This document shows, one piece after another, positions 10,719 through 42,255 of a stretch of 48,072 nt of DNA (positions are counted from its first letter, which is position 1; the number at the start of each line of letters is the position of its first letter). Below the pieces are notes generated by a model, which did no database searches, was not told the DNA's origin, and saw nothing but the letters and a program-made list of their open reading frames with translations. Position numbers and translations under genes: made by a program. The stretch lies in the sequence record DRR378314_231; one strand, given 5' to 3'.

Positions 10719-10780
10719 GCAACTCTGGTCATAGCTGAGCGAGGCATTAGACTTGTCCCTGACAGAGGGAGTCACACGCC

Positions 10781-40029: not shown

Positions 40030-41061
40030 CTAACCCTTCCGAATAATTTCCAACACGCGTTCTACATGCGCGATAGGTGTCTCCGGCCGGATGCCATGAC
40101 CAAGATTGAAAATATGCGGCCGACCTTCGTAGGCAGAGATAAGTTCCCGAACGCGGGCGTCGAGTCTCTCACCGCCTTCAATCAGTAAAAGTGGGTCAAG
40201 ATGTCCTTGAACCGGAAAGCCTTCAGGCAAGGCCTTGTTCACGAATGATGGCACTGCTGCCGTATCGAGACCAACCGCAGTCACGCCAGTTGTCTCCACA
40301 TATTCCGGAAGCATCGCCGCGGCGCCGCGCGGAAAGCCGATGATCGGAACATCAATGCCCATCTTGCGAAGACGGGCGACAAGTTTTTGTGTGGGCGCGA
40401 TAATAACTTCCCGGAAGATATTGTCTGGAAGCCCTTCGGCCCAGCTGTCGAACAGCATGAGAGCATCCGCTCCAGCATCTACCTGAGCCGCCAGATAATG
40501 CGCCGTCGCTTCACTGATCCGATCCAGTGCAGCCGCGAGTTCGTTTGGCTTCCCGTGCGCCCAGCGCCAAGCGAGGGATTTATCCGTCTTGCCACGGCCT
40601 TCGATCGCGTACAGCCCGACGGTCCAGGGAGACCCGGCAAACCCGATCAGCGCTGTCCCATCCGGAAGTGAGCTCTTCACTCGCGAAACTGTTTCGTAAA
40701 CTGGCGACAAACGGTCAGCTGCTTGTTGGGGGGGCACTTTGTCCAGATCATTCGCTGACTCGATCTGCTGAACAATTGGGCCAATACCTTTCTCGAACTT
40801 CACGCCGAGACCCATTGTATCAAGGATCAACAGGATGTCTGCGAACAGGATGGCTCCGTCCATACCGTATCGACGTATGGGCTGGAGTGTAGCTTCAGCC
40901 GCCATCGACGGCGTGTAGCAGAAATCGAGGAAATTCTTCGCTCGTGCTCTCAGCTCTAGATATTCTGGCAGGTGGCGTCCCGCTTGCCTCATCATCCATA
41001 CCGGAGGCGTTGGGACCGTCTGTCCCTCAAGTACCTGAATCAGCTTAGGCTTGGCGCTCAT
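40030..41061 (-). CDS. hemE: Uroporphyrinogen decarboxylase
   Basis: PVWMMRQAGR.LPEY, AILFADIL, LIGFAGSPWT, FDSWA and HIFNLGHGI motifs. Confidence 0.97.
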   Translation of the reverse strand: MSAKPKLIQVLEGQTVPTPPVWMMRQAGRHLPEYLELRARAKNFLDFCYTPSMAAEATLQPIRRYGMDGAILFADILLILDTMGLGVKFEKGIGPIVQQIESANDLDKVPPQQAADRLSPVYETVSRVKSSLPDGTALIGFAGSPWTVGLYAIEGRGKTDKSLAWRWAHGKPNELAAALDRISEATAHYLAAQVDAGADALMLFDSWAEGLPDNIFREVIIAPTQKLVARLRKMGIDVPIIGFPRGAAAMLPEYVETTGVTAVGLDTAAVPSFVNKALPEGFPVQGHLDPLLLIEGGERLDARVRELISAYEGRPHIFNLGHGIRPETPIAHVERVLEIIRKG

Positions 41062-41204
41062 GCCTCAGGCCCCTTCCATCCCAAAATCAAAACAAAGCCC
41101 GACAGGGCGCTTATAACTATTAGACCGTGTAATTCGTGGAGAAAGGCCACACACAGGAATTGTCCAGCTAAATCCACAGGCGAGTCACAGGGTGTCGCAC
41201 CCCG

Positions 41205-41220
41205 GTAAGGTTTCGTTAAC
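41205..41220 (+). promoter_or_regulatory. CtrA binding site (8/9)
   Basis: GTAA ggtttcg TTAAC. Confidence 0.7.
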
Positions 41221-41237
41221 TGTCGATGCCACCGTGG

Positions 41238-41253
41238 TTAACGGCAGGTTAAC
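41238..41253 (+). promoter_or_regulatory. CtrA binding site (perfect)
   Basis: TTAA cggcagg TTAAC. Confidence 0.85.
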
Positions 41254-41350
41254 ACCCCCGCTGGAGTCACAGGAGCGAACGAAAGGGGATTCTCGCGGAG
41301 TCGAATTCCTGGCCTGTGACTCGATTGTGAATCCTTTTGGGGAAGATTGG

Positions 41351-41359
41351 TTATCCACA
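41351..41359 (+). promoter_or_regulatory. DnaA box (perfect)
   Basis: TTATCCACA. Confidence 0.88.
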
Positions 41360-41409
41360 GAGGAGTCACAGGTCTTGTGTGTGACGCGAACCTCGGCAAG
41401 AGAGAAGAG

Positions 41410-42255
41410 ATGAACAAGCCACCCGCCCGCCTCAGCATCTACTTCAATGTCCACCTGGTTTCCGACAGTACGGGGGAAACCTTGAATGCCATTCAGCGCG
41501 CTGCTTGCGCGCAGTTCCAGAATGTCCAACCACTGGAGCACAATTATTATCTCGTCCGATCCGAGCGTCAGCTTGAGCGCGTAATGCGAGAGATTGAAGC
41601 GGCGCCGGGAGTCGTCTGGTACACGATCTCCGATGAAAACCTCCGATCCAAGCTGGAAGCCTTCTGCCGAGAGCGCGGCGTGTCCACACTTCCGGTTCTG
41701 GATGCCTCTGTTGCCATGCTGGGCCGGCATCTGGGCGTCTCCGCAAACCGGGTCGTTGCAGGGCAGCATGCGCTGGACGATGATTATTTCGACCGGATGG
41801 AAGCCATCAATTTCACGCTGGCGCACGATGATGGCCAGAATGTCGATGGTCTTCGCAATGCCGACGTGATCTTGCTCGGCGTCAGTCGAACGTCGAAAAC
41901 ACCCACCAGCGTTTACCTAGCAAACCGCAAGGTAAAAGCCGGCAACATTCCCCTGGTGCCCGGCGTGCCGCTTCCTGCCTTTGTGGAAGAACTCGGCCCG
42001 AGAGGACCTTTGATCGTGGGATTGAAAATCAGTGCCGAGCGACTTGTGCAGATCAGGCGACAAAGACTGATCTCACTTCAGGAAGATGAGCACACAATAT
42101 ACGCGGACGAAGCCGCCGTGCGGGATGAAGTGACTCAGGCGAACCGTTTGTTCCAACGCAACAGGTGGAAAACGATTGATGTGTCGCGTCGGTCTGTTGA
42201 GGAAACCGCTGCGGCCATTCTGAACCTGTTGAATGAGCGGAACGCACAATCATGA
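41410..42255 (+). CDS. ppsR: Pyruvate,water/phosphate dikinase regulatory protein (DUF299 kinase/pyrophosphorylase)
   Basis: HLVSDSTGET, YF.R.EAINFTLAHDDG, LLGVSRTSKTPTSVYLA and IDVSRRSVEETAA motifs. Confidence 0.93.
   Translation: MNKPPARLSIYFNVHLVSDSTGETLNAIQRAACAQFQNVQPLEHNYYLVRSERQLERVMREIEAAPGVVWYTISDENLRSKLEAFCRERGVSTLPVLDASVAMLGRHLGVSANRVVAGQHALDDDYFDRMEAINFTLAHDDGQNVDGLRNADVILLGVSRTSKTPTSVYLANRKVKAGNIPLVPGVPLPAFVEELGPRGPLIVGLKISAERLVQIRRQRLISLQEDEHTIYADEAAVRDEVTQANRLFQRNRWKTIDVSRRSVEETAAAILNLLNERNAQS

Follow-up and report, generated by a model that had tools for sequence, protein, structure and literature searches.

GANTC-containing, DnaA-box-like repeats in the hemE-ppsR gap, a probable replication origin, of a Hyphomonas chromosome

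Low-affinity DnaA boxes which overlap an adenine-methylation site are already known, and the closest described case is oriC, the replication origin of E. coli. According to the sections of PMC6070618 that deal with DnaA binding, the E. coli consensus TT(A/T)TNCACA accepts any base at position 5 and boxes with at least two deviations bind weakly; the weak sites of oriC are 'separated by 2 bp', do not bind DnaA alone and are filled from a neighbouring strong site. In the account that PMC4285127 gives of regulation at this origin, the SeqA protein blocks DnaA at R5, I2, I3, tau1 and tau2, which overlap GATC. In this work we analyse a 48,072-bp stretch of DNA (record DRR378314_231, in its full length called the window from here on), which belongs to a Hyphomonas chromosome, and in particular the gap between its hemE and ppsR genes, where a repeated 10-mer, GAGTCACAGG, joins GANTC, the recognition site of the methylase CcrM, to the CACA tail of a DnaA box. 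What has not been described before is the Hyphomonas lineage of such boxes and their fixed register: in the literature that we searched, no paper on GANTC-fused DnaA boxes in Hyphomonas was found, the string GANTCACA did not occur, and the 25 papers listed for three further strings are unrelated.

The second relevant system is Cori, the Caulobacter origin, which lies at a hemE/DUF299 locus and in which CtrA boxes are interspersed with weak, cooperative DnaA boxes and GANTC sites are densely clustered (five CtrA sites and five GANTC sites, one W-box overlapping GANTC). As summarized in the box comparison of PMC4285127, the Caulobacter G-box, TGATCCACA, has G at position 2 and the W-box has the core TCCCCA, while the H. 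pylori box, TCATTCACA, has T at position 5. Whether CcrM controls the start of replication has long been an open question in Alphaproteobacteria. Their origins are rich in GANTC, and according to the passages of PMC6393856 and PMC3973325 on this enzyme, Caulobacter cells that overproduce CcrM have extra chromosomes, yet those lacking ccrM have no replication phenotype. Additionally, Caulobacter has GcrA-dependent promoters, in which methylated GANTC is read in a -35/-10 setting.

The GANTC-type boxes of the hemE-ppsR gap

The 10-mer GAGTCACAGG has four exact copies in the window, at 41182-41191, 41264-41273 and 41363-41372 on the plus strand and at 41313-41322 on the minus strand, and all four lie inside the 348-bp gap (41062..41409); elsewhere in the window there is a single copy with one mismatch, at 10769. 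When the gap was shuffled with its dinucleotides preserved, no 10-mer occurred four times, counting either strand (0/5000 shuffles), the maximum multiplicity being 1 in 4247 shuffles, 2 in 752 and 3 in one. GANTC itself is concentrated here, with 7 sites in the gap where the density in the rest of the window would predict 0.78 (Poisson P about 2e-5), and five of the seven are directly fused to CACA. The nearest genome compared (G001; 3.6 Mb, 99% complete and distinct from the window's own assembly) contains, in the genome-wide count proposed in the preliminary description of this DNA, seven copies of GAGTCACAGG, against four of the reversed control pattern. Four of these seven stand in the matching arrangement within a 190-bp stretch of the corresponding gap, and the remaining three (L005-L007) have no evident box-like neighbours or common context, as judged from a listing of open reading frames (ORFs) only. 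Across five genomes of the genus the pattern GANTCACAG was not above its reversed control (31 against 47 in G001), and we therefore regard it as an origin feature and not as the mark of a regulon. The repeat feature is real, conserved and origin-specific.

Written as 9-mers that end in CACA, the repeats take the form nGAnTCACA (nGAGTCACA in the window copies), with GANTC at box positions 2-6, and in this register a fifth GANTC-type member appears, box 5, which was absent from the list in the preliminary description. Three head-to-tail pairs can be recognized, each with a 2-bp gap and therefore an 11-bp step between the paired boxes. In pair A (plus strand, 41170-78/41181-89) the ordinary DnaA box AAATCCACA (41170..41178) precedes box 1, cGAGTCACA (41181..41189), which contains the 10-mer copy at 41182; in pair B (minus strand, 41334-26/41323-15) box 5 (reverse complement GGATTCACA, 41326..41334) precedes box 3 (reverse complement CGAGTCACA, 41315..41323), which corresponds to the minus-strand copy; and in pair C (plus strand, 41351-59/41362-70) the ordinary DnaA box TTATCCACA (41351..41359) precedes box 4, gGAGTCACA (41362..41370), which corresponds to the copy at 41363. 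Box 2, gGAGTCACA (41263..41271, plus strand, copy at 41264), is unpaired and starts 10 bp after the end of a CtrA box, TTAACGGCAGGTTAA (TTAA-N7-TTAA, 41238..41252). A degenerate CtrA-box-like word, GTAA-N7-TTAA, stands at 41205..41219 and reads TTAA-N7-TTAA in several other Hyphomonas; both CtrA boxes are thus located between boxes 1 and 2. The four exact 10-mers of the preliminary description, together with AAATCCACA at 41170, TTATCCACA at 41351 and the hexamer CACAGG at 41152 and 41175, are all found where it had placed them. Its '+12' spacing between DnaA box and repeat, given for two cases, becomes an 11-bp step when 9-mers are counted, leaving 2 bp between the boxes, and there are three such pairs and not two.

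With respect to TT(A/T)TNCACA, the form nGAnTCACA agrees at A3, (N5), C6, A7, C8 and A9 and differs at positions 1, 2 and 4. The low-affinity sites of E. coli oriC (R5M, tau, I and C) likewise overlap an adenine-methylation site and have the same 2-bp spacing; in Hyphomonas, however, CcrM (GANTC) takes the place of Dam (GATC), a search of G001 found no SeqA, the methylation site sits in a fixed register (positions 2-6) in up to five boxes, with a free N, and the arrays are pairs, whereas those of E. coli are runs of four. The locus, the CtrA boxes between weak boxes and the dense GANTC cluster are shared with Cori, from which the window differs in having no G-box or W-box words, a weak class of the form nGAnTCACA and 5/7 of its GANTC sites fused to boxes, while Caulobacter has a single such overlap and shows no replication phenotype upon loss of ccrM. 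The T5 of the H. pylori box indicates that T before CACA is compatible with DnaA binding, as it would be in the GANTC-type boxes, but that box has no methylation-site overlap, keeps T4 and belongs to a different lineage with a different DnaA. Finally, GcrA is present in G001 as it is in Caulobacter, but the Hyphomonas GANTC sites stand in an origin array and in DnaA-box register, and not in the -35/-10 setting of the GcrA-dependent promoters.

The gap is read as a probable hemE-type alphaproteobacterial replication origin because of its gene order, its position at a minimum of GC skew and the mapping of the Hyphomonas neptunium origin by marker frequency, which agrees with the preliminary description, where it is called an origin. 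It is flanked on the left by hemE (URO-D, 40030-41061, minus strand) and on the right by ppsR (Kinase-PPPase/DUF299, 41410-42255, plus strand), with rho and hemH upstream (hemH being next to hemE) and ppsR-maf-aroE-coaE-dnaQ downstream; the part of PMC6393856 on Cori gives the hemE/DUF299 order as that of the Caulobacter origin. The cumulative GC skew of the window has its minimum at 38-42 kb, around the gap, and the mapping section of PMC6650430 places the H. neptunium origin 'close to hemE'. The PpsR-like protein of the window is 100% identical to its counterpart in Hyphomonas atlantica 22II1-22F38 (L008).

Conservation and distribution of the boxes

Three alignments were made, one of 19 Hyphomonas gaps, one of the window with its sister clade (Henriciella-like records) and one of 28 distinct Hyphomonas gaps; these 28, out of 55 related loci found, are the Hyphomonas-type gaps on which all constraint counts are based. 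Boxes 1, 2 and 5, in the alignment of hemE-ppsR gaps that the preliminary description had called for, are kept in 27-28/28. At box 1 GA.TCACA is present in 28/28 (G, A, T and C 28 each), the middle base being G in 25, C in two and A in one; box 2 has GA.TCACA in 28/28 as well (again 28 each), with G in 17, C in six and A in five; and box 5, read on the plus strand, is TGTGA.TC in 27/28 (TGTG 28/28, A 28, T 27, C 27), with A in 11, C in 10 and G in seven. A trailing G follows CACA in 25/28 and 26/28 gaps at boxes 1 and 2, respectively. Selection probably keeps both halves of the word, the CACA(G) tail as the part for DnaA and GA.TC as the part for CcrM. The spacers between boxes vary freely. 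In the CtrA box at 41238..41252 the first TTAA is found in 28/28, and the second has T, A and A in 28/28 and one T in 25/28.

The ordinary boxes of the same gaps have T4 in 28/28, with variable positions 2-3 (A/T and A/G/T): at AAATCCACA positions 1-3 vary and C5, C6, A7, C8 and A9 are present in 27-28/28, and at TTATCCACA positions 2-3 vary. A fixed G, A, T and C around a free middle base is the pattern predicted from CcrM recognition, and not from the DnaA consensus, which suggests that GANTC itself is probably under selection in the boxes. A reading in which these are plain weak DnaA boxes with an idle GANTC, where G2, A3 and T5 would simply reflect the DnaA preference of the lineage, seems rather unlikely to us: the Caulobacter G-box TGATCCACA does have G2 and A3, Caulobacter without ccrM has a normal DNA content, and 9/28 gaps are without GANTC at box 4 and 17/28 without it at box 3, but the contrast between ordinary boxes, fixed at T4 and variable at 2-3, and GANTC-type boxes, fixed at G2 and A3 and free at 4, is the one that CcrM would impose. 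Furthermore, GANTC is about 12-fold denser in the gap than in its flanks in both clades (the flanks have about 2 sites per kb, and a 350-bp gap has on average 7.6 among 26 Hyphomonas loci and 6.2 among 8 loci of the sister clade). As a separate observation, the genome G390 (L075:1-220), from another member of the genus, has five GANTC-type boxes in 220 bp in which all four bases occur at N (GACTC, GAATC, GACTC, GATTC and GAGTC), so that N is free even within one origin.

Across the alignments CACA stays in register while the word preceding it changes, and the 11-bp step of the pairs is maintained throughout the aligned relatives. At the columns of the boxes, relatives carry DnaA-box-like words such as ATCCACA, TGTCCCCA (W-box-like) and GTACACA, as well as words of the TCCCCA, TACACA and TTCACA types; similar words are recognized DnaA boxes in E. 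coli, H. pylori and Caulobacter. The sister clade has TGTCCCCAG, TATCCTCAG, GAATCCACAG or GATTCACAA at box 1 and ACATCCACAG (in one record GATTCACAG) at box 4, where one Hyphomonas subclade has TTGTACACAGG. Within the genus, 19/28 gaps have a GANTC-type box 4, in place of which one subclade has GTACACA or GCACACA, and box 3 is of the GANTC type in 11/28, the other 17/28 reading TGTGGAT, TGTGGAA or TGTGAAT, that is, ATCCACA, TTCCACA or ATTCACA in reverse complement; its counterparts include the reverse complements of ATCCACAT and TTTCCACAG. Since relatives hold DnaA-box words in identical columns, the repeats occupy DnaA-box positions. The statement in the preliminary description that the repeats are neither G-box nor W-box is accordingly right for the words themselves, as neither TGATCCACA nor TCCCCA occurs at the four window sites, but less so for their position, given that TGTCCCCAG, which carries the W-box core TCCCCA, stands at box 1 in the sister clade, so that the repeats look like counterparts of such weak boxes.

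Copies 2 and 3 of the 10-mer, at 41264 (plus) and 41313 (minus), are exact reverse complements and, standing 39 bp apart, make up a 10-bp inverted repeat, as a structured RNA or a cruciform might. This is an extremely improbable explanation, which we reject: 17/28 gaps have a word of the ATCCACA type at box 3, yet their box 2 shows no change to compensate for it, and a scan of 40900-41600 against Rfam gave no match at E up to 5.

The composite TCCACA-N3-GANTCACA, in which an ordinary box precedes a GANTC-type one, is present in 29/29 genomes of the genus that were searched, 21 of them carrying it twice on one strand, at a distance of about 181 bp, and eight once, and in 7/372 other genomes of the order; the reversed control has four hits in the same table. 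Gene context was judged for five of these seven outside genomes (all except G359 and G384). In three of the seven (G385, G181 and G392) the match lies in the hemE-ppsR gap, and in two it is apparently elsewhere, beside a patatin-like gene in G178 and at the end of a long ORF without a Pfam hit in G371. The mean number of GANTC-CACA fusions per 350-bp gap is 4.1 (3-5) in 26 Hyphomonas loci and 0.1 (0-1) in 8 sister-clade loci; judged from these counts, the fusion of GANTC to CACA is a Hyphomonas trait. A side observation concerns G181 (L072:1973-1989) and G392 (L073:1987-2003), from another family of the order, in which the composite in the hemE-ppsR gap has the form TTTTCCACA-AT-tGAGTCACAG and stands near TTATCCACAG and a TTAA-N7-TTAA box; here the fusion could either have arisen a second time, independently, or be an ancient trait with patchy retention.

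Probable weak DnaA boxes, CcrM and alternative readers

On balance, we favour reading the boxes as low-affinity DnaA boxes, nGAnTCACA, whose positions 2-6 double as a CcrM site. As expected of weak boxes, they deviate from the consensus at no fewer than two positions, the paired ones have a better neighbour 2 bp away in a putative origin, and their columns hold DnaA words in relatives; as expected of CcrM sites, all five contain GANTC, with a degenerate N at boxes 1, 2 and 5, and G001 encodes a full-length CcrM orthologue (L064:1153-2235, minus strand; E 4e-159 to PDB 6PBD). DnaA itself quite likely binds these boxes. The head-to-tail pairing at 2 bp makes a handover of DnaA possible, as in the low-affinity arrays of E. 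coli: DnaA at the better box (AAATCCACA or TTATCCACA) would pass DnaA-ATP to the weak box 2 bp away, and each weak paired box would be filled through cooperation with its neighbour.

Because GANTC spans box positions 2-6, each box would carry two methyl-adenines within the stretch contacted by DnaA, one at position 3 of the top strand and the other on the bottom strand, opposite position 5. Full methylation of the gap would precede initiation, and the hemimethylated state that follows would last until the next action of CcrM. The likeliest reason for the retention of GANTC would be that the methylation state alters how readily DnaA, or a competitor, occupies the boxes. A measurable effect of methylation on initiation is possible, and we propose it tentatively. 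Sequestration of the SeqA type has no obvious agent here, as a search of G001 for SeqA (PF03925) gave no match while the E. coli control was detected, in keeping with the preliminary description, which had spoken of a lineage with no known SeqA. In a stronger version of the proposal, which we consider unlikely, CcrM methylation would itself be the gate for DnaA loading in Hyphomonas, with no part for SeqA: only full methylation would allow the three to five weak boxes per origin to be filled, an origin that has just been replicated and is hemimethylated would be refractory until CcrM returns late in the cycle, and the genus-wide switch from weak boxes of the ATCCACA or TCCCCA type to GANTCACA boxes would be its evolutionary trace.

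Several observations weigh against a methylation-sensitive DnaA box. The boxes are off consensus at positions 1, 2 and 4 and, by E. coli rules, would not bind DnaA alone. Domain IV of the G001 DnaA is ordinary, aligning with the PRQ, P.IG and RDHTT motifs of the E. coli, B. subtilis and M. tuberculosis proteins, and shows no sign of changed specificity. GANTC is kept at box 3 in only 11/28 gaps and at box 4 in only 19/28; it has been lost there in part of the genus, and therefore not every fusion is needed. The genome-wide count of GANTCACAG is neutral for a role confined to the origin and lends it no independent support. In Caulobacter, as reported in the passages of PMC6393856 and PMC3973325 on ccrM deletion, the DNA content remains like wild type despite the W-box that overlaps GANTC. 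The interpretation offered in the preliminary description, low-affinity sites sensitive to methylation, thus gains from the DnaA-box positions in relatives, the deviations of low-affinity type and the conserved GANTC with its free N, but not from the normal DNA content of Caulobacter after ccrM loss. Finally, the H. neptunium data discussed below contain a mild rise in a column headed GcrA, which leaves room for another reader of the sites.

An alternative reader could be a separate origin-binding protein, possibly one that senses methyl-adenine, which would recognize GAnTCACAG and aid or block the spreading of DnaA. We consider this quite unlikely, and it is less economical than the DnaA reading. 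The 10-bp word is asymmetric, has a conserved trailing G and lacks the T4 of ordinary boxes, and the composite is almost confined to one genus, all of which would suit a dedicated factor; however, ordinary DnaA words take these columns in relatives and, at boxes 3 and 4, in part of the genus itself, the rest of the genome shows no enrichment of the motif, and no genus-specific candidate was found. Small HdaB-like proteins that resemble DnaA domain IV, present in all five genomes examined, could be put forward for this role, but they also occur in genera without the boxes, and the part of PMC7049699 on Caulobacter HdaB reports that it acts through HdaA and is without the DNA-binding Arg-399.

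The HdaB-like proteins have stop-to-stop frames of 114-136 aa (L078-L082 in G001, G390, G042, G043 and G046), with Arg-Gln at the PRQ site of DnaA in 4/5 and Arg-His in one, and all five have DR(S/T)TV or DKSTV in place of the DnaA DHTTV/I. As Caulobacter HdaB is reported to be without Arg-399, it is worth considering that the versions in these genomes may bind DNA. As an alternative reader of the boxes they are unsupported, occurring as they do in genera both with and without them. A tyrosine in DnaA (histidine in the 'LHA' of E. coli) was also considered as a correlate of the boxes and rejected, since it is found in genera without them and in M. tuberculosis DnaA.

A further alternative, very unlikely in our opinion, is that the methylated GANTC sites are promoter elements for GcrA and sigma-70, driving ppsR, hemE or a small RNA from the gap. 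GcrA is encoded in G001, and the transcription part of PMC6393856 describes three transcription starts in Cori. In the chromatin immunoprecipitation (ChIP) data of PMC7200025, as given in the 50-bp bins of its S3 Data file, CtrA is strongly enriched and the column headed GcrA mildly raised: the H. neptunium gap (bins 1-250) has 55-111 reads per million (RPM) for CtrA against 0.3-4.6 for input, and 38-43 RPM in the column headed GcrA against an input of 9.6-15.8; most neighbouring bins of the latter column have 8-25 RPM, and similar bumps are seen nearby in it (37-38 RPM at 1701-1800), so that the rise over the gap is small. The peak table of the same paper (S5 Data) has no entry for HNE_3568, HNE_0001 or hemE. 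In the 10-bp S4 sheet headed 'ctrA promoter region', moreover, the 'CtrA Total input' column peaks at 15-28 RPM at the ctrA promoter and the 'GcrA' column stands at about 0.01; the column headers of this companion file look inconsistent and may have been swapped, and hence the GcrA and CtrA columns need a check against raw reads. The boxes are in DnaA-box register and phasing, which argues against promoter elements, and a promoter and terminator scan found neither in the gap (its hits were in ppsR, one sigma-70-like site within the gene and two weak terminator-like sites where it starts). Nor do the boxes match the extended GcrA motif, which we take to be YGAKTCK.

In Caulobacter, gcrA is among the targets of DnaA. 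G001 has four ordinary DnaA-box words ahead of this gene (L063:2128-2385), CTTTCCACAG, TTGTCCACAG, GGGTCCACAG and GCATCCACAC, located 145-400 bp upstream of it and with no GANTC-type box among them. They share the TCCACAG tail of the origin, which favours the DnaA reading of the boxes, and their presence suggests that gcrA is still under DnaA control in Hyphomonas.

Hyphomonas offers a much sharper test case than Caulobacter for the role of CcrM in initiation, as most GANTC sites of its origin are fused, in one register, to DnaA-box tails, in 29/29 genomes. Methylation control of initiation is directly testable in this genus, where H. neptunium cells have already been synchronised for such work, so that ordinary bench tests would serve; a genetic toolbox for the species has reportedly been developed (Jung, 2015). 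In particular, GANTCCACA is the counterpart of GANTCACA that would keep the methylation site while strengthening the box. Were the direct gating by CcrM to be true, a budding bacterium would have a built-in once-per-cycle licence for replication. On a practical level, TCCACA-N3-GANTCACA is a simple signature for locating the origin in Hyphomonas assemblies.

Other features of the gap

One further GAGTC, at 41298..41302, is not fused to CACA; it belongs to a conserved block, GGAGTCGAATTC, which appears in the sister clade as GAGTCAGATTCG. Closer to hemE, 36-47 bp upstream of its start, lies the inverted repeat GCCCGACAGGGC (41097-41108), which 19/19 aligned Hyphomonas gaps share without change and which the sister clade lacks. 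A T-rich run comes after it on the minus strand, and the repeat could be a small terminator or attenuator before hemE, the end of a leftward RNA (Cori, in parallel, contains a small RNA gene) or a protein site. Between hemE and the first boxes lies an AT-rich block, CTTATAACTATTAG... (41110..41140, reading CTTAT.A.TATTA at 41110-41125), which is kept both in Hyphomonas and in the sister clade and is possibly an unwinding element or an IHF site.

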